Shown piece by piece: positions 4,571-41,495 of a stretch of DNA of 64,000 nt. The notes under the pieces were generated by a model, which made no database searches, was not told where the DNA came from, and saw only the letters and a program-made list of their open reading frames with translations. A program made the translations under genes and the position numbers. Source of the stretch: Ruminococcaceae bacterium UBA6416 (GTDB taxonomy: Bacteria; Bacillota; Clostridia; Oscillospirales; Acutalibacteraceae); assembly GCA_002438505.1 (NCBI GenBank), contig DJPI01000010.1:24487-88486 (forward strand). The letters are read 5' to 3'. Numbering within the stretch: the first letter of the stretch is position 1; the number at the start of each line of letters is the position of its first letter.

Positions 4571-5566
4571 TTGAGTAACAACGAAAAGCTTGTTCAGATT
4601 GAACATCTCCAGCAGTACTTCCCTGCCGGCGGAAGAGGAAAAAACAAAAAGTTTGTTCAAGCCGTTGATGATGTTTCCTTTTTCATCAACAAGGGTGAAA
4701 CCCTCGGTCTTGTTGGTGAATCCGGCTGCGGAAAAACAACGGTCGGCCGAACCCTTCTGCGCCTTTATGAGCCGACCGGCGGAAGGATTATCTATGACGG
4801 AAACGTCATTTTTGACAAGGAAAAGAAAATTGCCGTCAATATGCTTCCATATCGCAGAAAGATGCAAATGGTGTTCCAGGATCCGTATGCGAGCCTTGAC
4901 CCGCGCATGACGATAGGCGATATTGTCGGCGAGGCTATTGACATCCATAAACTTGCCGCGAACAAAGCCGAGCGGCGCGAGAGGATAATCTCCCTGCTTG
5001 AAACGGTCGGCCTCAACAGTGAACACGCCAACCGCTATCCGCACGAGTTTTCCGGCGGTCAGCGTCAGCGTGTCGGCATTGCAAGAGCGCTTGCCGTCAA
5101 TCCGGAATTTATTGTTTGCGATGAACCTGTTTCCGCTCTGGACGTTTCAATTCAGGCGCAGGTTGTCAATATGTTTGAAGACTTGCAGAAAGAATTGGGC
5201 TTGACCTATCTTTTCATTGCGCACGACCTCAGCATTGTTCGCCATATCTCAAACAGAATCGGCGTTATGTATCTCGGAAAGCTTGTTGAGCTTGCGGACA
5301 GCTTTGAACTCATTGCCCACAGTGTTCATCCCTACACAAGAAGCCTCATTTCCGCAATTCCGGAGGCTGACCCCAAAACCGCGCGCGCTTCAAAGCGCAT
5401 TCCGCTCCAGGGAGACGTTCCAAGTCCGCTCAATCCGCCCAGCGGCTGCCGCTTCAGAACGCGCTGCCCTTATGCGGACGAGCTTTGCGCAAAGGAATGC
5501 CCGGCGCTCAAAGAAGTAAGCCCCGGCCATTTTGCCGCGTGTCATCACCTTGACAAGGTGAACTGA
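4571..5566 (+). CDS. oppF: Oligopeptide ABC transporter ATP-binding protein
   Basis: TTG start after GGGGAGGA. Walker [17 protein letters not shown], Walker [14 protein letters not shown]-terminal GCRFRTRCP. Confidence 0.9.
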
Positions 5567-11203: not shown

Positions 11204-13213
11204 ATGAAAAAAACAGTTGAATTTGAAAAAGGCAAAAAGGTCTTTCCGGTTATTATTGCAATAATCGGCGCAGCTCTTGCGGCGGCTCAGATCATAACGC
11301 GGCTCAATTTTGTTTCCGTTCTGTGCGTTGGTTATTGCTGCATTGTTTCGGCGCTTATGCTGATTTCGCTGATATTCAAAAAGAAAGTCTATCTTTTCAT
11401 GCTTCTGGGCTATGCTTTTTCCTTTGGAGGCCTCACCGTTTTTCATATTGTTTTTGGTGCGGACTCCGGCTTTGGTGCGTTTTCAAGCGGCCTTGCCGGT
11501 TGGTCGAGCGCCGCTCATCCGCTTCTTTCCGGGGAGGGGAGCTTTTTCCTGCGCCTTTGCGGAAATCTTCTGCTTTCCCTGCCTGTGATAATCAGCTTCT
11601 TCCTGCTTGTCCTTTTTTCAAAAAAGAGCTTTAAAAAAGAAAGGGCGAAAAACGCCCTCTGCTCATTTTTGAGCCTTCTTCTTGTTGGCTCCTCCGTTGC
11701 GAGTGTTCTTTTCATGAACATGAGAACAAAGCCGGTGACCGAACGGCTTTGGGAGGGCGAGGAGGATTACCTCAAAGGCGTTGACAAAGCGCAGAAAAAC
11801 AGTCCAAATGTTCTTTTTGTTCTTATGGATGACCTCGGATACGGCGATGTTTCGCTCAACGGCGCAATATATGAAACGCCGAATATTGACTCAATAGGCG
11901 AAAACGGACTTAATTTTGAAAACTTTTATTCAAGCTATTCGGTTTGCTCACCCGCCCGCTTTGCCGCAATGACAGGACGCTATCCTTACAGAGGCTATGC
12001 GGACAATGTTGTTTATCCGACAATTTCAACCGTTTCGCCCTTTGCGCAGACGCGGATTTTTAACAGCATTGAAATGGGCAATAACACCGACGGAATGCTC
12101 GGAGACGAAATTACCGTTGCGGAGGTTTTTAAGGCCGCCGGATACTCAACCGGTCTTTTTGGAAAATGGCATCTCGGTGATTACGGTGAGTATCTTCCAA
12201 CAAACCAGGGCTTTGATTATTTTTACGGCAGTCACCACGTCAATGACATGACACCGTTTTACCATGTCCGCGAGGAGGGCGGCGAATACACCATTGCCCA
12301 CGGAACGGATGAGCTTAAAGATCAGTCGAAGGCGACCGGCTGGATAAACGAGGAAATTACCGATTGGATAACCGAAACCGTAACAAAAAAGGACGAACCT
12401 TTCTTTGCCGTTTACACCTCTCCGTGGCCGCACGCACCGGTTTTTGCCGGTGATGAGTTCAAGGGCTCAACGGGAATGGGTACATATGTTGACTGCATCA
12501 ATGAATTTGACGCCGGACTCGGAAAGCTGTTCACAACGCTTGATGAGCTTGGTGTTCTTGAGGACACGATAATTGTTTTCACAAGTGATAACGGCCCGGC
12601 GCTTGAAGGCTCGGTCAATGAGCTGCGCGGCGGAAAGTATCTTGCCTATGAGGGCGGCCAAAAGGTTCCGTTCATGCTCCGGTGGGACAATAACAACGGT
12701 CTGTTCAAAGCCGGAGAAACAAGAAAACAGAGCGCAACTCTTGTTGACCTTTTCCCGACCCTGCTTTCCCTTTGTTCAATAACCGGAAACGGTAAGGACG
12801 GATATCTTCCATCGGATCGCGTCATTGACGGCGTTTCAATGCTGCCGCTGATTAAAAATGACAGTGTTATCCACACCGAAAAAACGCCGATTCTCCATAT
12901 GAAACGCAAGGACATCAAGGCCATTCAGTATACCGTTGAAACCTCCGAGGTTAAAAAGCTTTATCCTGATTATAACTATGATGTGCTGAACAAGAACAAG
13001 CAAATAACATTCAAATATTTTGACCGCATTCAAAACGATAACTCCGCGTTTTTTGATAAGTTCCGCAAAAACTGGCTGCATATTCTGACCGATGACAGCG
13101 GTGAAAACTATAACCGTTCCGGAGTCTATCCGCTTGTTGCGGAAAAGATGCACGCAAGGCTTGATGAAATTCAGACCGATTTTGAAAAGAATCCGAGAGG
13201 TATAATTAAGTAA
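11204..13213 (+). CDS. Membrane-anchored Cys-type (formylglycine) sulfatase
   Basis: About 170 aa N-terminal with ~5 hydrophobic segments. The sulfatase domain follows, with NVLFVLMDDLGYGD and the FGly motif CSPARFAAMTGR. Confidence 0.8.
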   Translation: MKKTVEFEKGKKVFPVIIAIIGAALAAAQIITRLNFVSVLCVGYCCIVSALMLISLIFKKKVYLFMLLGYAFSFGGLTVFHIVFGADSGFGAFSSGLAGWSSAAHPLLSGEGSFFLRLCGNLLLSLPVIISFFLLVLFSKKSFKKERAKNALCSFLSLLLVGSSVASVLFMNMRTKPVTERLWEGEEDYLKGVDKAQKNSPNVLFVLMDDLGYGDVSLNGAIYETPNIDSIGENGLNFENFYSSYSVCSPARFAAMTGRYPYRGYADNVVYPTISTVSPFAQTRIFNSIEMGNNTDGMLGDEITVAEVFKAAGYSTGLFGKWHLGDYGEYLPTNQGFDYFYGSHHVNDMTPFYHVREEGGEYTIAHGTDELKDQSKATGWINEEITDWITETVTKKDEPFFAVYTSPWPHAPVFAGDEFKGSTGMGTYVDCINEFDAGLGKLFTTLDELGVLEDTIIVFTSDNGPALEGSVNELRGGKYLAYEGGQKVPFMLRWDNNNGLFKAGETRKQSATLVDLFPTLLSLCSITGNGKDGYLPSDRVIDGVSMLPLIKNDSVIHTEKTPILHMKRKDIKAIQYTVETSEVKKLYPDYNYDVLNKNKQITFKYFDRIQNDNSAFFDKFRKNWLHILTDDSGENYNRSGVYPLVAEKMHARLDEIQTDFEKNPRGIIK

Positions 13214-14292
13214 TGCCGCCGCTTTCAATAATGATTAAACCGGCCTCAAGCCTTTGCAACCTCAGGTGCAGATATTGCTTTTACTGCGATGTTGCGGAAA
13301 ACCGGGAAGTTTTCACCTTCGGAATGATGACAAAAGAGACGGCGGAAAGTCTCATCAAAAGCGCACTCGAATTTGCAAACGGAGAAAGCGTTGCTTTTGC
13401 CTTTCAGGGCGGTGAGCCGCTTCTTGTCGGACTTGACTATTTCCGCTTTTTTGTCTCCTGCGTTGAAGGAAACAATAAAAAAGGCTCGCGGATTTTTTAC
13501 TCGGTGCAAACCAACGGAACCCTCATCACGGATGAATGGTGCAAGTTTTTCCGTGAGAATGAATTTCTTGTTGGTCTGAGCCTTGACGGCGACCGGGAGG
13601 GAAACCGCTTCCGCGTTGATTCAAAAGGGAACAATGCGTATTTTAAAATTCTCAAGGCCGCCGAAAAGCTTAAGAAGCATTCCGTGGAGTTCAACATTCT
13701 TGTTGTCCTCACTGCCCTTTGTGCAGAGCGGTGCGAAAAGGTGTATAAATATTTCCGTGACAACGGCTTTAAGTATCTCCAGTTCATACCGTGCCTGCGG
13801 CCGTTCGGTGATGAGAGCGAAAGCGAGCTTTACATGACGGAAAAGCAGCACGCCGAATTTCTTGTTAAGACGTTCAATCTTTATGTCAAGGACTTTGTTC
13901 GCGGAAATTATGTCAGCATCCGCCTTTTTGACAACTGGGTGAGAATGTTCCTCGGCGAAAAGCCGGAGCAATGCGGCCTTTGCGGCCATTGCACACACCA
14001 GCTTGTTGTTGAGGGAAACGGAAACCTTTATCCCTGTGACTTTTTTTGCACCGATGAATGGCTGCTTGGAAACATTGAAACCGTTTCGGTTGAAGCGGCT
14101 CTCACCGGAAAAAGGGCGCAGAAATTTATCCGTGAGAGTCTTGAAGTTGATGAAAGGTGCAAAAGCTGCCGCTTTTTTTCAATGTGCCGCGCTCAAGGCT
14201 GCAAGCGGCAAAAGGTTCATGCGGATTACTGCTTTTCTTACTGGACATTTTTTTCATCCTGTCTTCCTTTGTTTCGTGTGTTCGGAAAATAA
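13213..14292 (+). CDS. Anaerobic sulfatase-maturating enzyme (radical SAM / SPASM)
   Basis: CNLRCRYC (CX3CX2C) near the N-terminus. C-terminal Cys clusters CGLCGHC, CDFFC, CKSCRFFSMCRAQGC. The ATG overlaps the sulfatase stop (TAATG). Confidence 0.8.
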   Translation: MPPLSIMIKPASSLCNLRCRYCFYCDVAENREVFTFGMMTKETAESLIKSALEFANGESVAFAFQGGEPLLVGLDYFRFFVSCVEGNNKKGSRIFYSVQTNGTLITDEWCKFFRENEFLVGLSLDGDREGNRFRVDSKGNNAYFKILKAAEKLKKHSVEFNILVVLTALCAERCEKVYKYFRDNGFKYLQFIPCLRPFGDESESELYMTEKQHAEFLVKTFNLYVKDFVRGNYVSIRLFDNWVRMFLGEKPEQCGLCGHCTHQLVVEGNGNLYPCDFFCTDEWLLGNIETVSVEAALTGKRAQKFIRESLEVDERCKSCRFFSMCRAQGCKRQKVHADYCFSYWTFFSSCLPLFRVFGK

Positions 14293-16024: not shown

Positions 16025-16104
16025 CTTGATTTTTTCGGAATACGGTGATACAATTAATAGGATATTTTGGTCATTGCCGGACGTGGGCGAAAGGGGCGAT
16101 TATT

Positions 16105-16485
16105 ATGCACTTGCAGGAATCGGGAGAAATGTATCTTGAAACGATTCTTATTCTTTCAAAACAGCAAACGAATGTCCGCTCGCTTGACGTTGCGGATTAC
16201 ATGGGTTTTTCAAAGCCTAGCGTCAGCCGTGCCGTTGGTCTGCTCAAAAGCGGAGAGTACATCACCGTTGACGGCAACGGGTATCTCACCTTGACAGAGA
16301 AAGGGCGCGGTGTCGCGGAAAAGATTTATGAGCGCCACACCGTTTTGACGGAAATTCTGGTTCGTCTCGGTGTTGACAGGGATATCGCCCTTGAGGATGC
16401 CTGCAAGATGGAACACGTCATCAGCGATGAATCCTTTAATGCGATTAAAGCGCACATCGAAAGCGAAAAGAACGCGGCGCGCTGA
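16105..16485 (+). CDS. DtxR/MntR-family metal-dependent transcriptional regulator
   Basis: MYLETILILSK...VADYMGFSKPSVSRAVGLLKSGEYI is the winged-HTH, followed by a dimerisation region. There is no SH3-like domain. I prefer ATG 16105 (RBS AAAGGGG). Confidence 0.75.
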   Translation: MHLQESGEMYLETILILSKQQTNVRSLDVADYMGFSKPSVSRAVGLLKSGEYITVDGNGYLTLTEKGRGVAEKIYERHTVLTEILVRLGVDRDIALEDACKMEHVISDESFNAIKAHIESEKNAAR

Positions 16486-16663: not shown

Positions 16664-18664
16664 ATGAAAATGGCGATTAAAAATGCTAAGAAAACACTCG
16701 CGGTTCTTTTGAGCGTTCTTATGCTCTGCTCATTTGGCGCTGTGTTTGTCGGCGCCGAGGGCGCAATCAAATGGGAAACCGCACCGGACGGATATTCGCT
16801 CACAGTTCCGAAAAGTGAAACCGATGTTGAAACTCTCACTCTCCCCGTGGCAACGGCTGAGGGCATTGAGGGCGCGGTCAGCTATGAGCTTGTTATTTTG
16901 AACGGTGAAAATGAAACAGCCGTTCAGGCGGAAGTTTTCAGCTTTAAAACAGACAATCCGGAAATTAAAGTTGGCAACAACATTAAAAATTATGTTTCAA
17001 ACAATGACATTGACAGAGACGGAAGCATCATTCTCGGCATGAGAGCTTCCTGCGGAGAAGTCAAGTCCGACCTCTGCCTCATAAAAATTGAAAATGTTAA
17101 GGTCAAGGCAACTTTCAGCTATATAAACAAAAAAGCTCAAGAAGCCAACAAGGAAACCGAGGTCTTTTACGGCACGTCCGCAAAGAGCTTTGCGGACGGA
17201 ATTGACGACCGTGAAGAAGTTGAAAATGATGAGTTCTTCCATTATGATTTCAAGGGCTGGGTAGCTATGGACGGCTCTGAGTCCACCGTTGAAAATGTTA
17301 TTAAAGATACTGTTTTTGCCCCTTCAATCGTTTCTGAGGCTCATACTTGGGTTAAAGATGAAGAGAACAGCAAAGAAAAGTCCTGCACCGAGGGCGGCGT
17401 ACTTGCTGAAATTTGCAGTGTGTGCGGTGAAACAAGAACCACGGACATTCCTGCCGGCCATGATTGGGTCGAGGAAGCGCCCGGCGTTCCGGCAACCTGC
17501 ACTAAGGACGGAAAAACCGCTTCCAAGGTTTGCAAAAAGTGCGGCGCAAAAGAGGAGTCTCAAGTAATCCCCAGCAAAGGCCACACTCCCGTTGATGACC
17601 CGGCAACACCGGCAACCTGCACTGAGCCTGCAAAAACCGCAGGAAGCCATTGCGCGGTTTGCAAAGAAGTTTTAGTTGAGCAGAAGAATGTCGGTGAGGC
17701 ACTCGGCCACGACAAGGTTCAGCATGACGCAAAGGCTCCCACCTGCACAGAAGTCGGCTGGGATGCATATGAAACCTGCTCACGCTGCAGCGAGTACACA
17801 ACCTATGTTGAAAAGGCAGCTCTCGGCCATCTCATTGACGAAACAGACGAGAGCACAAAAATTGAAGCCGTCTCTGCAACCTGCTTGGCCGCCGGTCGCA
17901 CAGAGGGCTATAAGTGCAAGCGTGAGGGCTGCGATTACACAACCTGCAAGACTATTGAAAAGCTCCCGCACACAAAGACCGAAGTTAAGGAAGCCGTTTC
18001 TGCAACCTGCACCAAAACCGGCCTCACCGAGGGATACACCTGCTCGGTTTGCCATACGGTTGTTGTTCAGGAAGTTGTTCCCATGATTCCCCACACCGAA
18101 GTTATCATTCCGGCTGTTCCTGCAACCTGCACCAAAACCGGCCTCACCGAGGGCAAAAAGTGCTCCGTTTGCGAAACTGTAACCGTTCGTCAGGAGGTTG
18201 TCCCCGCTCTTGACCACGATTGGAAGGTTACCAAAAAGGGTACTCCGGCAACCTGCACCGAAAAGGGCATTTCCGATGAAAAAACGTGCCTGCGCTGCAA
18301 GGCTGTTGAACCTCAGGCGGAGCTTGAGCCTCTCGGCCACAAACTTGTCACAGAATACGGCAGAGATGCAACCTGCCTTGAGGACGGACTGACCGATAAG
18401 ATTTTCTGCTCAAGGTGCAATGAGGTCATTCAAAAGGCAGAAGTAATTCCGAACCTTGGCGGACATAAGGATCTTGACAATGACGGCTTCTGTGATCACT
18501 GCGGAGCGGTTGTTGAAAAGCCGCAGCCCGGAAACCAGTGTGGCTGCATGTGCCATAAGGACGGCTTTGTCGGCTGGCTGTGGAAGAGTATTCTTTGCCC
18601 GATCTGCAAGTTCCTCGGCATTGAACAGGACTGCGCTTGCGGAATCAAGCATTGGACAAAATAA
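16664..18664 (+). CDS. Secreted Cys/His-rich repeat protein with a distinctive C-terminal Cys/His plus aromatic-helix tail
   Basis: Signal peptide. A Listeria-Bacteroides-like segment (FFHYDFKGWV). About 9 tandem modules [AP]TC[TL]xxGx5-6CxxCx13-17H. The tail is CGCMCHKDGFVGWLWKSILCPICKFLGIEQDCACGIKHWTK. Confidence 0.6.
   Translation: MKMAIKNAKKTLAVLLSVLMLCSFGAVFVGAEGAIKWETAPDGYSLTVPKSETDVETLTLPVATAEGIEGAVSYELVILNGENETAVQAEVFSFKTDNPEIKVGNNIKNYVSNNDIDRDGSIILGMRASCGEVKSDLCLIKIENVKVKATFSYINKKAQEANKETEVFYGTSAKSFADGIDDREEVENDEFFHYDFKGWVAMDGSESTVENVIKDTVFAPSIVSEAHTWVKDEENSKEKSCTEGGVLAEICSVCGETRTTDIPAGHDWVEEAPGVPATCTKDGKTASKVCKKCGAKEESQVIPSKGHTPVDDPATPATCTEPAKTAGSHCAVCKEVLVEQKNVGEALGHDKVQHDAKAPTCTEVGWDAYETCSRCSEYTTYVEKAALGHLIDETDESTKIEAVSATCLAAGRTEGYKCKREGCDYTTCKTIEKLPHTKTEVKEAVSATCTKTGLTEGYTCSVCHTVVVQEVVPMIPHTEVIIPAVPATCTKTGLTEGKKCSVCETVTVRQEVVPALDHDWKVTKKGTPATCTEKGISDEKTCLRCKAVEPQAELEPLGHKLVTEYGRDATCLEDGLTDKIFCSRCNEVIQKAEVIPNLGGHKDLDNDGFCDHCGAVVEKPQPGNQCGCMCHKDGFVGWLWKSILCPICKFLGIEQDCACGIKHWTK
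18000..18153 (+). repeat. Intragenic tandem duplication (120-bp period)
   Basis: Perfect 34-nt copy ctgcaacctgcaccaaaaccggcctcaccgaggg at 18000..18033 and 18120..18153. The gcaacctgc (ATC) core recurs about 9 times across 17490..18370. Confidence 0.85.
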
Positions 18665-18736: not shown

Positions 18737-19762
18737 TTACTTTTCCCACTTCATAACGGTCTTTCCGAAAGCCTTCTTTGTGTCAAGCTCAAAGGCCTCT
18801 GTCATGTCCTTGATTGAGCGCACAGTTTTAACAATGCCAACCATGTGGGAGAGATATTCAATAATTTCCGGATACTTGTCATACATCTCAACGGTTTTGA
18901 CAAAGTCAACGCGTCCGCTGCGGCTGCTTCCGAACATCCTCAGACCCTTTTCAAGAATCATCCTTGTGTTGATTGGAACGGGGTACTCGGAAACGCCGAG
19001 GATTGAAATTGTTCCCTCGGGGTTGATATAGTCAATAATCTGGTTGATTGCAACCTGAGAACCGTTTCCGCCAACGCATTCAAATGCGTGGTCAATTTGC
19101 ATATCGTCCGGAATTTCCGTTGTCAGGAATGTTTCATCAACAAAGGTGAAGTCTGCAAGCTTTTTCGGAACAACGCCGAAAACATAAACCTTGGTTTTCG
19201 GAAAGAACTTCTTGAGGAAGATGCAAGTCATATAGCTGAGGTTTCCATCGCCCCAAACGCCGATGACGTTGCGCCTCTTGTGGGCAATTTTGTCAAAACG
19301 TGAAATTGCGTGAACACCGACCGAAACCATCTCCGTGAAAGCGGCAATTTCGTTTGGAATACTTTCCGGAAGAAGAACAAGGCGGTCTGCCGGAGTCTGA
19401 ACATATTCCTGCATGAAGCCGTCAAAGCCGCTTGCGCGGAACTTGCTTGAGCGCAGATAGTTTTCGGCAATGATGTCATCCTTTTCAAAAGGCGTGTTGG
19501 GAACCATAACAACCCTGTCTCCGGGCTTGAAAGAACCGTCCGGAGCATAGACAACCTCGCCGATACCCTCGTGAATGAGAGCCATCGGAAGCTTTTTTGC
19601 AAGAACCTTTGCATCGCGCGTACCTTGAAAGTATCTTTGGTCGGCGTTGCAAATTGAAAGATAGGTCGGTTTAACAATAATATCGGGAGAGAAGATATCA
19701 ATTTCATTGAAGGCAATTTCAATCTTCCTCGGCTGCGTCAGTCTGTAAACTGTATTAAGCAT
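18737..19762 (-). CDS. tarJ: Ribitol-5-phosphate (ribulose-5-P) dehydrogenase, MDR Zn-ADH family
   Basis: 341-aa medium-chain dehydrogenase fold (LIHEGIGEVV, GVWGDGNL). Immediately downstream of the IspD-like cytidylyltransferase, as in tarIJ. Confidence 0.65.
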   Translation of the reverse strand: MLNTVYRLTQPRKIEIAFNEIDIFSPDIIVKPTYLSICNADQRYFQGTRDAKVLAKKLPMALIHEGIGEVVYAPDGSFKPGDRVVMVPNTPFEKDDIIAENYLRSSKFRASGFDGFMQEYVQTPADRLVLLPESIPNEIAAFTEMVSVGVHAISRFDKIAHKRRNVIGVWGDGNLSYMTCIFLKKFFPKTKVYVFGVVPKKLADFTFVDETFLTTEIPDDMQIDHAFECVGGNGSQVAINQIIDYINPEGTISILGVSEYPVPINTRMILEKGLRMFGSSRSGRVDFVKTVEMYDKYPEIIEYLSHMVGIVKTVRSIKDMTEAFELDTKKAFGKTVMKWEK

Positions 19763-19789
19763 TGTTTTTTTCCTTTCGTGTCATGCCGC

Positions 19790-20503
19790 TCAGTCGGCAA
19801 TTTCCTCGTCAAGGAGGGCTTTTGCAACTCTGAGGTCATACGGATAGGTGATTTTGATGTTGTGAACCTCGCCCTGAACGAGGTGGACAGGATAGCCTTT
19901 CATGCTGAAAATTTTGCAGGCATCGGTGAGAATGCTCTTTTCGTCCTCGGTAAGACTTTCATAAAGCTCCTTAAGCTTTTTCGCTTTGAATGCCTGCGGA
20001 GTCTGACCTTGATAAAGGCGGTTTCTGTCAGGAATGGAGCTGATTGTTTCTTTGTCAATGCTTTCAACAATGGTGTCCGTTGCCGGAACAACAGTGTCCG
20101 TTGCGCCGAACTCAAGCGCCGCGTCAATGTTCTCGTCAATGATTCGCGCGGAAACAAAGGGACGAACCGCGTCATGGGTAACAATGACAGTTTCCTCGTC
20201 AAGACCATCGGTCTCTTCAATATAGCGAACGGCGTTCATGATGGTCTCGTTCCTTGTTGAACCGCCCTTGAGAACAAGAACGCGATCATTTTCAGGCAGA
20301 TGCTTTGCAAGAATGTTTTTTGTGTAGCTGACCCACTGGTCGGGGCAGAGAATGATGACCTTTTTGAATGCACTGTTGACATAAAATTTTTCAACCGTGT
20401 GAACAATGATGGGCTTGTCCTTGAGCGTCAGATACTGCTTCGGCTTTTCAAGGTTTCCCATTCTGCTGCCGATTCCGCCGGCGGCGATTACTGCATATAA
20501 CAT
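19790..20503 (-). CDS. tarI: D-ribitol-5-phosphate cytidylyltransferase (IspD family)
   Basis: MLYAVIAAGGIGSRMG...KQYL... is an IspD/TarI-type N-terminus. 237 aa. Confidence 0.75.
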   Translation of the reverse strand: MLYAVIAAGGIGSRMGNLEKPKQYLTLKDKPIIVHTVEKFYVNSAFKKVIILCPDQWVSYTKNILAKHLPENDRVLVLKGGSTRNETIMNAVRYIEETDGLDEETVIVTHDAVRPFVSARIIDENIDAALEFGATDTVVPATDTIVESIDKETISSIPDRNRLYQGQTPQAFKAKKLKELYESLTEDEKSILTDACKIFSMKGYPVHLVQGEVHNIKITYPYDLRVAKALLDEEIAD

Positions 20504-37877: not shown

Positions 37878-39845
37878 ATGAAGAAAACAACAAAAAAACT
37901 CGTTTCTCTTTTCCTTGCGGTGCTTATGCTGATGTCGTGCTTCGGCGCATCGGCTGCGGCGCAGGAAATTGAAACAACCCTTCCGGTTGTTGAGCTTGAA
38001 GGGACCGAAATGAAGCTCGGTGAGAAGTATCCGATTGACATTGATGACTTCTTAGGAAAGTTTATTCCGGAAAAAAGCGGCCTTTATGAGGTTTATGCTT
38101 TTAACGCCGGTCTGAATGCCTATAACAGCAGCGGCTGGTTTGAGGGTGAAACCGAAACTGGAAGCATACTCAAGGACGATGTGCTGTTCTATTGCGAAAA
38201 ACAATTCCTTGAGCTTGAAAAAGGAAAGACCTATGCTTTTTCCTGTTATAGCTTGGAGGAAGATTATGATGCGTACGTGACGGTAAATTTCGTTTGCGCT
38301 CATGAAAATCAGGAAGAAAAGGCTGCCGTTGAGGTGACCTGCGGTATCGGTTACACCGCAGGCGTATATTGCAATGACTGCAAAAGGTGGTTGAGCGGCC
38401 ATACGGCTGTTTTTAAACCGCATACCGATAAAAACGGCGACCATATCTGTGATGTTTGCAAGAAGGAAAGCCTCGACTCATACGGTGATATTGTTGACAG
38501 AAACGGCAAAAAGAACGCAAGCTATAAGCTTTTCTCAGACGGAGAGCTTGTTGTTTCCGGCACCGGTGAGGTGAAATGGTTCAGCGTTTATGCTCTTGAT
38601 AACGAGGATATCTGCCTGAATGAAAAGGTCAAAAAAATCATTGTTGAAGAGGGCATAACATCTCTTGGCTATAAAGCTTTTTACGACTTTAAATTTGTTG
38701 AATCCGTCTCGCTTCCGGAAAGTCTTGAAGCCATTGAAGAGCCGGGTCGGCTCATTGACAGCTCAGCCTTCAAAAAATTTGAGGTTTCGCCGAAGAATAA
38801 AGCATTCAGTGCCAAAGACGGCGTGCTTTTCAGCAAGGACAAAAAGGTTCTTCTTGCCTATCCCGGCGGAAAGACCGAAAAAAGCTACACCGTTCCTCAG
38901 GAAGTTGAACGCATTGGAGAACGCGCGTTCCGCTATGCCTCTGACCTTGAAGCATTGAATCTTCCGGAGAGTCTGCGCTTTGTTGGCAGTTTGGCATTCC
39001 CGGAGCATATGGAAAAAACCGAGGGCTGCGTGAAGTATGTCGGCTCTGTTGCAGTTGGAACGCAAGAAACCGATGAAGGAGAACTTCCGAGCGTTATCAG
39101 AGTCAGAAAGGGCACAAAAATTCTTGCCGAATATGCTTTTGAGGATGCTGATGTTAGAGGTATTGCTCTTCCGGAAGGACTCATTTCAATCTCTAACGGT
39201 GCTTTTGAAACCTTGGGAGTAAGCAGCATTATTCTTCCGCAGACCGTGAAGTATATTGAGGACGGCGCTTTTTCCCAGTGCTACATTAACAACCTCGTTG
39301 TTCCGGCATCGGTTGAATATTTTGGAGATAACGGCTTCAAAAATCTTGAAGCGATAGCTTTCCTTAACTCGAACTGCAAAATCGGAGCATTGTACAACGG
39401 TTATGCCTTCATTGAGGACGGTTCTTTCCCGGTTGAGCTTATTGCAGGCTTCAGCGGCTCAACGGCTGAAAAGAGTGCAAAGGAAAACGGCGCAATGTTT
39501 GCTGCTCTTGATGAGGGTCATGAACACGTCTATTTCTGCACGGCATATGATTACGAAACCTGCACAAAGGACGGAAAGGTTGTCTATTCCTGCCCCTGCG
39601 GAAAGAGCGCACCTATGGAGGAAATTATCCCTGCCTCACATTCATGGGACGAGGAAAGCGTTGACGCGGTAAGCGGAAAGGCTCATTATGTTTGTGTTGA
39701 TTGCGGCGCAGAAAAGGATGTGCAGTGCTCCTGCATCTGCCATAAAGGCGGAATTTATAAATTCTTCTATAAGTTTGTCAGCATTTTCTGGAGGCTGTTC
39801 AAGATAAAACAATGCTGCGATTGCGGCATGATTTTGCATTATTAA
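37878..39845 (+). CDS. Secreted BspA-type leucine-rich-repeat protein with CCCH modules and the Cys/His plus aromatic-helix C-terminal tail
   Basis: Signal peptide. LRR_5-like repeats (ITSLGYKAF, VERIGERAF..LNLPESL, ISISNGAF, IEDGAF). C-x-C modules. The tail is CSCICHKGGIYKFFYKFVSIFWRLFKIKQCCDCGMILHY. Confidence 0.65.
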   Translation: MKKTTKKLVSLFLAVLMLMSCFGASAAAQEIETTLPVVELEGTEMKLGEKYPIDIDDFLGKFIPEKSGLYEVYAFNAGLNAYNSSGWFEGETETGSILKDDVLFYCEKQFLELEKGKTYAFSCYSLEEDYDAYVTVNFVCAHENQEEKAAVEVTCGIGYTAGVYCNDCKRWLSGHTAVFKPHTDKNGDHICDVCKKESLDSYGDIVDRNGKKNASYKLFSDGELVVSGTGEVKWFSVYALDNEDICLNEKVKKIIVEEGITSLGYKAFYDFKFVESVSLPESLEAIEEPGRLIDSSAFKKFEVSPKNKAFSAKDGVLFSKDKKVLLAYPGGKTEKSYTVPQEVERIGERAFRYASDLEALNLPESLRFVGSLAFPEHMEKTEGCVKYVGSVAVGTQETDEGELPSVIRVRKGTKILAEYAFEDADVRGIALPEGLISISNGAFETLGVSSIILPQTVKYIEDGAFSQCYINNLVVPASVEYFGDNGFKNLEAIAFLNSNCKIGALYNGYAFIEDGSFPVELIAGFSGSTAEKSAKENGAMFAALDEGHEHVYFCTAYDYETCTKDGKVVYSCPCGKSAPMEEIIPASHSWDEESVDAVSGKAHYVCVDCGAEKDVQCSCICHKGGIYKFFYKFVSIFWRLFKIKQCCDCGMILHY

Positions 39846-39866: not shown

Positions 39867-41495
39867 ATGAAAAAGTTTAAAAGTGCTCTTGCGTTGCTTC
39901 TTTGCGCGCTGATGCTTCTGCCGACTCTTTCTGCCGGTTTGGCTTTTGCGGTGGGGGATGTCTATCCCGAAAGTGAGCATTATTACAGCAACAATTATTA
40001 CAACGAGTGGGTATATACATATCCGAAAGAGGCTGAGGGTCTTTTTGTAACATTTTCAAAAAAGACAAAGACCGAACGCGCGGACAATTTTTACGGCATC
40101 AGCTTTAAAAGCGATGAAGGAATCAGCCTTGGGGATGTTACAGATCTTTGGCAAACTAGGAAAATTGGCGACTATATCTCAATTTTTGATAAGAACAACA
40201 ATCTTATCGATGTCTATCAAGGTGACGAGCTTTCCGGTGAGACTGTGTACATTCCCGGAAACACTTTTAAAATTTCCCTGACAACGGACTCGTCCGTAAC
40301 CGCATACGGCTTTTCAATCGACAGAATTTCAGATACTGTTCCGGAAGATACCGTTGGTGTGCTTTATGACTTTGGAAACGGTGAGATTAAAACCGATATC
40401 TTTGACTTTGACTATCTGGAAAAATATTACACGCGCTATGATGAGGAAAGTGAAGATTGGATTCTTACCGCGCCTTTGAGCCCGTACTGGTGTGGATACA
40501 CAACAGATTCCGGCGCCGTAATCGGCTGGGAAGCGGAGGATAAAACAGTTTATTCCTATGCTGTTGAGGGCGGTGCTTACAGTATTCATGCGGAGGAAAA
40601 AGTTTTCCCGGTTGACAGTGAAAAAGGCGGAATTTATCGCTTCACCGCGGTCAAAACTCCTGTTATGCTTCAAAAAGAAGATGTCTATAGCTTCACAAAC
40701 AGCTCTGAATATTTTTCTGTTGACGGCAACGGCGGCTATTACATGACCAAGGAAAGCTATCTGCGCCTTGTTGCGAGCGCCTGCATCATTCACTCGGTCG
40801 GCCCGCTTGCGCTCCCGGCTTCGGTTCTTTCAACCGTTTTGATAGGTTATCCGCAAATGCAGTGGAACGGTTCTTGCATCGGCTTCACATCAACCGTCTG
40901 TCTCCAGAAGAAAGGCATTCTTGACGTTGTTAAAACCGTAAATCAGGACGGTGCAAAATGTATCAATGACTTAAAGCCGACAAAGGAGCTTATCAATCTG
41001 ATAAACTACTATAACGGCCAAGCCTCGCTTACAACGGTCACCAAGAACAAAGCGAACAGAAAAACTCCGAAGGAATTTTCAAGACAGCTTAAAAAGATGT
41101 TTGAAAGCGTTTGCGCCGGAAATCTTGTTCTCATGGAATTTATGCAGCTTGGCGGCAATGAAGGTCTTTATCACGGCTTTGCTCTCACCGGCGGTTACAC
41201 CGATGAAAACGGAAATCACGTTTTGTTCTATTATGATGACAACGATCAAGAATACGGCAGTGAGGGAATATGCTCCGTCTGCTATATTGCTCCGGACTTT
41301 TCGGAGATTTATACCGGAGATTACGGTGCGCTTGAAACAATTCTCTGGACGGATGAGTTTGAGGGATACAAGTCTATCGATATAAACTCAAAGAGCATTA
41401 ATCCGTCTTATTATTGGAAAGAATATATCAAGCACATTGTTGAAATTTTCAAAGAGTGGCTTGAGTTCTATCTCTTTGGTGCACTTAAAAAGTAA
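39867..41495 (+). CDS. Secreted protein: CUB-like beta-sandwich plus possible papain-like cysteine peptidase domain
   Basis: Signal peptide. ESEHYYSNNYYNEWVY...DYISIFD...GNTFKISLTTDSSVTAYGFSIDRI is the CUB-like pattern. Candidate Q/C/H residues lie in QMQWNGSCIGF and GLYHGFALTGG. Starts 22 nt after the 37878 gene. Confidence 0.45.
   Translation: MKKFKSALALLLCALMLLPTLSAGLAFAVGDVYPESEHYYSNNYYNEWVYTYPKEAEGLFVTFSKKTKTERADNFYGISFKSDEGISLGDVTDLWQTRKIGDYISIFDKNNNLIDVYQGDELSGETVYIPGNTFKISLTTDSSVTAYGFSIDRISDTVPEDTVGVLYDFGNGEIKTDIFDFDYLEKYYTRYDEESEDWILTAPLSPYWCGYTTDSGAVIGWEAEDKTVYSYAVEGGAYSIHAEEKVFPVDSEKGGIYRFTAVKTPVMLQKEDVYSFTNSSEYFSVDGNGGYYMTKESYLRLVASACIIHSVGPLALPASVLSTVLIGYPQMQWNGSCIGFTSTVCLQKKGILDVVKTVNQDGAKCINDLKPTKELINLINYYNGQASLTTVTKNKANRKTPKEFSRQLKKMFESVCAGNLVLMEFMQLGGNEGLYHGFALTGGYTDENGNHVLFYYDDNDQEYGSEGICSVCYIAPDFSEIYTGDYGALETILWTDEFEGYKSIDINSKSINPSYYWKEYIKHIVEIFKEWLEFYLFGALKK

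Follow-up and report, generated by a model that had tools for sequence, protein, structure and literature searches.

Why do two secreted proteins encoded in the same stretch of DNA end in similar short tails rich in Cys, His, aromatic residues and Lys? This question is raised by a 64,000-nucleotide stretch of contig DJPI01000010.1 (positions 24,487 to 88,486 of the forward strand) from Ruminococcaceae bacterium UBA6416, referred to here as the window. The original prediction, made from the sequence alone, regarded the tails as a portable C-terminal module and proposed three roles: a metal-clamped amphipathic membrane anchor, an acylation site, or a recognition tag for a dedicated sorting or processing system. 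The tail is one of many autonomous C-terminal modules, each about 38 residues long, which form a large family absent from the catalogues and are carried by Sec-exported surface proteins of gut Oscillospirales, mostly Acutalibacteraceae. Among the three roles, the metal-clamped amphipathic anchor fits the data best. A probability of about 45% is given to the reading in which the tail is an in-plane anchor of this kind, keeping exported proteins on the anionic membrane or envelope. The two genes and the parts of their tails are as follows.

16664..18664 (+): gene 1, an open reading frame for a secreted protein of 666 residues, in which a signal peptide, an N-terminal domain and about 11 H..C..C..C units precede the tail
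16664..16756 (+): predicted Sec signal peptide of gene 1 (MKMAIKNAKKTLAVLLSVLMLCSFGAVFVGA, followed by EG), read from its basic N-region, hydrophobic core and VGA; the cleavage site is putative
18464..18505 (+): last H-x-D-x-D-x-D-G-x-C-D-x-C-G unit of gene 1 (HKDLDNDGFCDHCG), recognized from its sequence, directly upstream of tail 1
18539..18661 (+): tail 1, 41 residues, a divergent "GIEQ...HWTK" subtype of the family; C-terminal sequence QCGCMCHKDGFVGWLWKSILCPICKFLGIEQDCACGIKHWTK / CGCMCHKDGFVGWLWKSILCPICKFLGIEQDCACGIKHWTK, then stop; profile match of 38.9 bits over the full model
18539..18556 (+): N-terminal Cys/His cluster of tail 1, CGCMCH in the sequence, corresponding to family positions 1, 3, 5 and 6 (C, C/H, C and H)
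18566..18616 (+): predicted amphipathic helix of tail 1, FVGWLWKSILCPICKFL, from the AlphaFold2 helix (model residues 39-55) and the hydrophobic moment
18632..18655 (+): C-terminal cluster of tail 1, CACGIKHW, modelled as a small hairpin (beta bridges: residues 59-60 and 66-68); TK and the stop codon come next
37878..39845 (+): gene 2, an open reading frame for a secreted protein of 655 residues, in which a signal peptide, a BspA-type leucine-rich repeat (LRR) region (LRR_5, E=3.8e-26) and three CCCH-type units precede the tail
37878..37961 (+): predicted signal peptide of gene 2 (MKKTTKKLVSLFLAVLMLMSCFGASAAA, followed by QE), from sequence reading; the cleavage site is putative
39726..39842 (+): tail 2, 39 residues, near the canonical 38-residue form; C-terminal sequence QCSCICHKGGIYKFFYKFVSIFWRLFKIKQCCDCGMILHY / CSCICHKGGIYKFFYKFVSIFWRLFKIKQCCDCGMILHY, then stop; profile match of 51.2 bits, E=1.2e-8
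39726..39743 (+): N-terminal Cys/His cluster of tail 2, CSCICH in the sequence
39753..39800 (+): predicted amphipathic helix of tail 2, IYKFFYKFVSIFWRLF, from the AlphaFold2 helix (model residues 40-55); hydrophobic moment 0.69 over 18 residues
39816..39842 (+): C-terminal cluster of tail 2, CDCGMILHY, with model bridges at residues 60 and 67 and the stop codon directly after it

The tails end both open reading frames at the positions first given for them (18539..18664 and 39726..39845, stop codons included), and a six-frame scan found CxCxCH in the window only at 18539 and 39726. BLASTP aligns the two tails with an E-value of 4e-5; their identity is 35%. The alignment had been described as gapless, but CxCG and the last His line up only with two one-residue insertions or deletions. 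The upstream parts had been described as different, but they are not entirely so: both bodies carry CCCH-type units. Those of protein 2, located directly before the tail and near residue 160-195, align with those of protein 1. The gene 1 product has 100% identity to database protein P0001 and matches no Pfam or NCBIfam family. Its tail is retained in the orthologues P0002-P0021 and in the 39%-identical relative P0090, and among the gene 1 orthologues the identity is 78-95% in the tail versus 49-81% in the bodies.

The spread of the tail is far wider than these two proteins. An exhaustive search of 1.84 billion cluster representatives (50% identity level) with a profile built from six tails found 1765 protein clusters at E<=1e-3, of which 26 were at E<=1e-10. 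Nearly all of the 150 best-scoring matches extend to the final residue of the protein. Among 147 collected tails, 129 are exactly 38 residues long, and these canonical tails read C-x-[H71/C58]-x-C-H-K-x-G-[F/I]-x-G-F-[I/F]-[Y/W]-K-I-x-R-x-F-W-K-L-F-x-x-N-x-x-C-x-C-G-x-x-H-[Y118/W11] (n=129). In other words, the protein ends in C-x-C-G-x-x-H-[Y/W]-COOH without an Arg/Lys cluster. An independent hidden Markov model (HMM) was made from 127 canonical tails of other organisms, with the window proteins and their orthologues left out. It matched protein 2 with 51.2 bits (E=1.2e-8) and protein 1 with 38.9 bits (E=8.5e-5), both over the whole model and at the C-terminus; these E-values are for 1.84e9 sequences. 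Since 97 Cys-rich CCCH-repeat homologues lacking the tail scored at most 6 bits with this HMM, Cys richness does not explain the match. It should be mentioned that one top match, in P0222 (1738 residues), is internal (residues 1576-1615, CPKCGQVHNKDFLDKIKGFFHKLTYRIENLFKK) and has no CxCxCH cluster, the only one of this kind; it may be remotely related and carry another metal motif.

In the species-representative genome set, a degenerate 113-nucleotide DNA pattern for the canonical tail, in which the stop codon was left unspecified, found at least 117 tail loci. The stop codon nevertheless follows directly in 92 of the 97 tails confirmed by regular expression. At least 25 assemblies have two or three tail loci each, as counted from the matches listed. 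Among these listed matches, all tail-bearing genomes are metagenome-assembled genomes and none is from an isolate; their names are mostly Acutalibacteraceae, together with Candidatus Fimenecus, Oscillospiraceae, Ruminococcus sp., "Clostridia bacterium" and similar, and the gut sources are human, goat, sheep, cattle, deer and chicken. A phage origin was rejected, because the tail pattern was found in only one contig of IMG/VR. This contig, IMGVR_UViG_3300029705_006902, carries two copies 4.6 kb apart (23-135 and 4610-4722, both on the minus strand) and may derive from a prophage region or be bacterial sequence that was misclassified.

The tail has no counterpart among described families. Among 82 tails, no real match was obtained in Pfam-A (only scattered single hits at E>=0.009) and no meaningful match in NCBIfam at E<=1; the window tails had none in NCBIfam at E<=10. 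The tail profile had 0 matches among the PDB sequences, and in Foldseek searches against the PDB folds nothing significant was found for either tail model (best E-values 2.7 and 0.59). A full-text search of the literature by sequence words and topic found no description of the tail. The original prediction had held that the tail is not a named sorting or wall-binding signal, and that a match to an already described domain, or confinement to two paralogues, would speak against a new module; the searches bear it out on each of these points. Dockerin, SLH, LysM, choline-binding, GW/SH3b and WxL modules occupy the same C-terminal position on similar surface proteins, but the tail is far shorter than these, has another composition and has no Pfam match.

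The carriers themselves are diverse. A simple heuristic found a signal peptide in 85 of 102 full-length carriers. A second strongly hydrophobic segment was present in only one of them (P0146, residue 54), near an N-terminus that looks mis-called; since this is the only exception, the carriers are in practice devoid of another membrane anchor. Lipoprotein anchoring was rejected as a general rule, because a lipobox-like string occurs in only 10 of the 102. The string LMSC in the signal peptide of gene 2 could be read alternatively as a lipobox. The Pfam domains found in 66 full-length carriers were as follows.

LRR_5: 31 carriers
LRR_8: 17 carriers
Transglut_core: 6 carriers
Flg_new: 5 carriers
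DUF6273: 5 carriers
Big_2: 3 carriers
Lectin_C: 3 carriers
Cohesin, peptidase C1, Amidase_5, NlpC/P60 and others: 1 carrier each

No Pfam family is common to all 66 carriers. The domains are of a surface type, with LRR, transglutaminase-like, Ig-like, lectin and peptidoglycan-hydrolase modules among them. This range of unrelated architectures, with varied sequence upstream of the tail, agrees with the portability that had been proposed. The module is thus strictly C-terminal, is found on many unrelated passengers, occurs several times per genome and is more constrained than the bodies.

The seven invariant Cys/His positions of the canonical tails are C1, C/H3, C5, H6, C31, C33 and H37. Of the 129 tails, 71 have His and 58 have Cys at position 3, and the other six positions show no such swap. 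This interchange of Cys and His suggests metal ligands and does not fit disulfide partners. Binding of Zn is considered probable. The seven ligands could accommodate one Zn with spare residues, or two Zn with a bridging thiolate. AlphaFold2 models made with family alignments gave the same layout for both window tails: a C-H turn, a helix of 16-17 residues, and a small hairpin around CxCG..H. In successive 10-residue blocks over the tail, the mean predicted local distance difference test score (pLDDT) was 87, 93, 93 and 82 for tail 1, and 76, 86, 84 and 67 for tail 2. The helix is independently supported by covariation: the strongest pairs (10-14, 15-22, 19-22, 15-19 and 18-22) are at the helical spacings i+3, i+4 and i+7. 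On one face of the helix, two alternative residue sets covary, Y15/R19/W22 and W15/N19/N22, which suggests a packing or cation-pi constraint, within or between helices.

The helix is strongly amphipathic. For 215 distinct tails, the median hydrophobic moment was 0.59 versus 0.22 in shuffled helices, and none of the shuffles reached 0.59. The median composition of the helix per 18 residues was 3 Lys/Arg, 0 Asp/Glu and 6 Phe/Trp/Tyr. On inspection of the helical wheel, the basic residues and Gly12 occupy an arc of about 100 degrees, with Trp/Tyr15 and Trp22 at its edge, and the hydrophobic arc covers about 220 degrees. Residues F13, I17, F21, L24, F25 and N28 are highly conserved along one stripe. 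On an insertion-energy scale after Hessa et al. 2005, the best 19-residue segment of the tail had a median of +8.4 kcal/mol (tail 1, +5.9; tail 2, +9.7), compared with -0.2 to -4.9 kcal/mol for the real C-terminal transmembrane anchors of homologues. For this reason a transmembrane segment was rejected.

These features would be accommodated by the following model. The seven invariant Cys/His residues would bind metal, most likely one or two Zn, and the metal would clamp both ends of the central helix of 17-18 residues into a small fold. The helix would present a wide aromatic and aliphatic face and a narrow stripe of three or four Lys/Arg, with no acidic residues and with Trp/Tyr at the boundary of the faces. 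Once exported, it would sit in-plane in the cytoplasmic membrane's outer leaflet; alternatively, it might contact another anionic layer of the envelope such as lipoteichoic acid. The passenger would stay on the cell surface with no need for a transmembrane segment, a covalent link or a cleavage step. An anchoring role is also suggested by analogy: homologous CCCH-repeat proteins of other bacteria have, at the position of the tail, either a transmembrane segment with a basic tail or a dockerin, which are known anchors.

The closest functional parallel is found in the Escherichia coli penicillin-binding proteins PBP5 and PBP6. These exported enzymes have a C-terminal amphipathic-helix anchor of about 18 residues that is thought to lie in the membrane interface. 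The tail resembles it in the length and high moment of its predicted helix, in the basic polar face, and in being borne by Sec-exported carriers with no other anchor; the anchors of PBP5 and PBP6 are not cleaved, as is proposed for the tail. In contrast, Cys/His clusters are missing from those anchors, which do not form a portable family of conserved sequence and show no homology to the tail; in the tail, the helix is flanked by seven invariant metal-type ligands, and its sequence is conserved in thousands of carriers unrelated to one another. The C1 and FYVE domains are small zinc-binding modules that touch membranes. The tail shares with them, and with zinc knuckles and ribbons, the short Cys/His-ligand format, the interchange of Cys and His at a ligand, and a surface of aromatic and basic residues. 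However, its ligand spacing (CxCxCH ... CxCGxxH) is different, there is no sequence or fold match, and the tail is extracellular, bacterial and mostly one long helix. The tail, whose function is putative, is regarded as structurally new within an already known class, that of C-terminal modules for surface retention.

Several points weigh against an in-plane anchor. The conservation of F13, I17, F21, L24, F25 and N28 exceeds what partitioning into lipid needs, so that it would also fit a specific protein partner. Carriers reach about 2400 residues, and a helix bound peripherally may hold such large proteins weakly. The strong association with an upstream CxxC unit (98/147 tails) means that part of the module may serve folding rather than anchoring. 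Finally, an enzyme that co-occurs with the tail is possibly encoded elsewhere in the genome.

The last point leads to the explanation in which the tail is a recognition tag for a dedicated sorting or processing enzyme (sortase-, exosortase-, rhombosortase- or myxosortase-like, or Cys-modifying or acylating). Such an enzyme would cut or modify the tail and join the protein to lipid or wall. The extreme C-terminal position is shared with the LPXTG/sortase, PEP-CTERM and GlyGly-CTERM signals and with the MYXO-, JDVT-, Synerg- and CGP-CTERM signals, which contain Cys. Tripartite C-terminal sorting signals, including those with Cys, combine a motif with a transmembrane segment and a cluster of Arg, and processing enzymes have been proposed for four formerly orphan signals, all with invariant Cys residues (bioRxiv 10.1101/2023.06.07.544157). 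By the criteria of that work, the strict C-terminal position, the several unrelated carriers per genome and the narrow lineage range of the tail favour a sorting tag, as do its own invariant Cys residues. Unlike the tripartite signals, the tail has no transmembrane helix (the median of +8.4 against -0.2 to -4.9 kcal/mol given above), no terminal Arg/Lys cluster, since it ends in H-[Y/W], and no match to an NCBIfam model. No recurrent neighbour gene was found when the neighbours in the 117 tail loci (up to 8 kb each) were clustered, the largest cluster other than carriers being ABC-transporter-like (7/117 loci). No cognate enzyme was found in these loci or in the window, and in the window there is no sortase, rhomboid or CPBP-type gene. 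In addition, all 38 residues are conserved up to the last one, which is unusual for a segment to be discarded. A sorting tag is therefore considered unlikely, and it is likewise doubtful that gut Oscillospirales have a new, lineage-specific sorting or Cys-modification system for which the tail would serve as substrate signal, recognised by a dedicated enzyme encoded elsewhere in the genome. If this were the case, it would be the first C-terminal sorting signal made from a metal-binding mini-domain and an amphipathic helix, not from a motif, a transmembrane segment and a basic cluster.

The conserved helix stripe might instead serve protein contacts. The tail would then be a small metal-dependent docking or oligomerisation module, similar to a dockerin, that binds a receptor protein or polymer of the surface, or other tails, and not lipid. 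The high residue-level conservation along the stripe is in accordance with such a role, and so is the compact fold confidently predicted by AlphaFold2. Dockerins occupy the tail position in some of the homologous CCCH-repeat proteins, and one carrier has a cohesin domain. On the other hand, no candidate receptor was found, and no gene recurs next to the tails in the 117 loci. As in typical interfacial membrane helices, the helix has six aromatic residues, three or four Lys/Arg and no acidic residue, and its hydrophobic arc covers about 220 degrees. Docking or oligomerisation thus seems a rather unlikely function.

The tail might also be purely structural, a terminal capping unit of extracellular CCCH (zinc-ribbon-like) arrays with no targeting function. 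A CxxC unit, typically H-x-D-x-D-x-D-G-x-C-D-x-C-G, lies within 32 residues upstream in 98 of the 147 tails; such units directly precede the tail in both window proteins, and one or more CxxC occur in the body of 89 of the 102 full-length carriers. However, 18 of the 147 tails follow a linker rich in Pro, Thr, Asp and Glu, at least 9 more come after another domain, whose end reads HFSxY...VDE, and 22 follow something else; in 13 of the 102 carriers the body is free of CxxC. Furthermore, most CCCH-array proteins lack the tail, have other anchors at their ends and score at most 6 bits against the tail profile, and the repeats have no counterpart of the amphipathic helix. A capping unit is accordingly improbable. 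The resemblance of the two tails as chance between Cys-rich ends, or as recent paralogy within this genome, for which only the low identity of 35% could be cited, is refuted almost beyond doubt: the matches to the family are significant, full-length and strictly C-terminal, and the family numbers more than 1700 clusters and is present in about 80 species-representative assemblies.

Some features of the carriers should be described apart from the function of the tail. The unit before the tail is often H-x-D-x-[D/N]-x-D-G-x-C-D-x-C-G, that is, a calcium-loop-like DxDxDG motif fused to CxxC. The body of gene 1 (16664..18538) contains about 11 zinc-ribbon-like H..C..C..C repeats, for which there is no Pfam or NCBIfam model. 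Homologues of this body at E<=1e-3 made up 7005 of 8000 scored database candidates, and the repeats seem to form a very large, poorly catalogued extracellular family. The 90% cluster of the gene 2 product includes a 50-residue partial sequence, WP_253926846.1, which is labelled Klebsiella quasipneumoniae and lies on a 398-bp contig; it is most likely a contamination of that assembly.

The neighbouring genes of the window are as follows.

11204..14292 (+): membrane sulfatase-family protein (LtaS-like architecture), then a radical SAM/SPASM protein (13213..14292)
16045..16485 (+): DtxR/MntR-family metal-dependent regulator, directly upstream of the Cys/His-rich gene 1
18737..20503 (-): Zn-type alcohol dehydrogenase and IspD-like cytidylyltransferase, resembling TarJ/TarI (CDP-ribitol synthesis)
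39867..41495 (+): secreted protein of 542 residues, 22 nucleotides after gene 2, with no Pfam match

The genes at 11204..14292 are probably a pair of anaerobic sulfatase and maturase. The radical SAM/SPASM gene adjoins the sulfatase-family gene and was for this reason read as a sulfatase maturase; it was rejected as a maturase of the tail. The DtxR-type regulator was rejected as a functional link to gene 1, because the distant orthologue P0090 does not have it as a neighbour. The TarJ/TarI-like genes suggest that the host makes anionic polymers of the teichoic acid type, which the basic tail could bind. The C-terminal stretch of the protein at 39867..41495 (...SYYWKEYIKHIVEIFKEWLEFYLFGALKK) has no Cys, is amphipathic and contains many aromatic, Lys and Glu residues; it may be another helix anchor without a metal clamp.

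The Acutalibacteraceae and their relatives in the Oscillospirales are abundant in the gut, and nearly all of them are uncultured. The tail bears on the question of how LRR adhesins, lectins, transglutaminase-like enzymes and wall hydrolases are displayed in the Oscillospirales. Its 38-residue signature marks well over a thousand surface proteins and can be used to list surface proteomes; Pfam and NCBIfam, which have no model for it, could add one. If the tail is a sorting tag, it would point to an undiscovered sorting pathway in Gram-positive bacteria. If the anchoring role is true, the metal-clamped in-plane helix would represent a compact, cleavage-free means of retention, usable for protein display on anaerobes.

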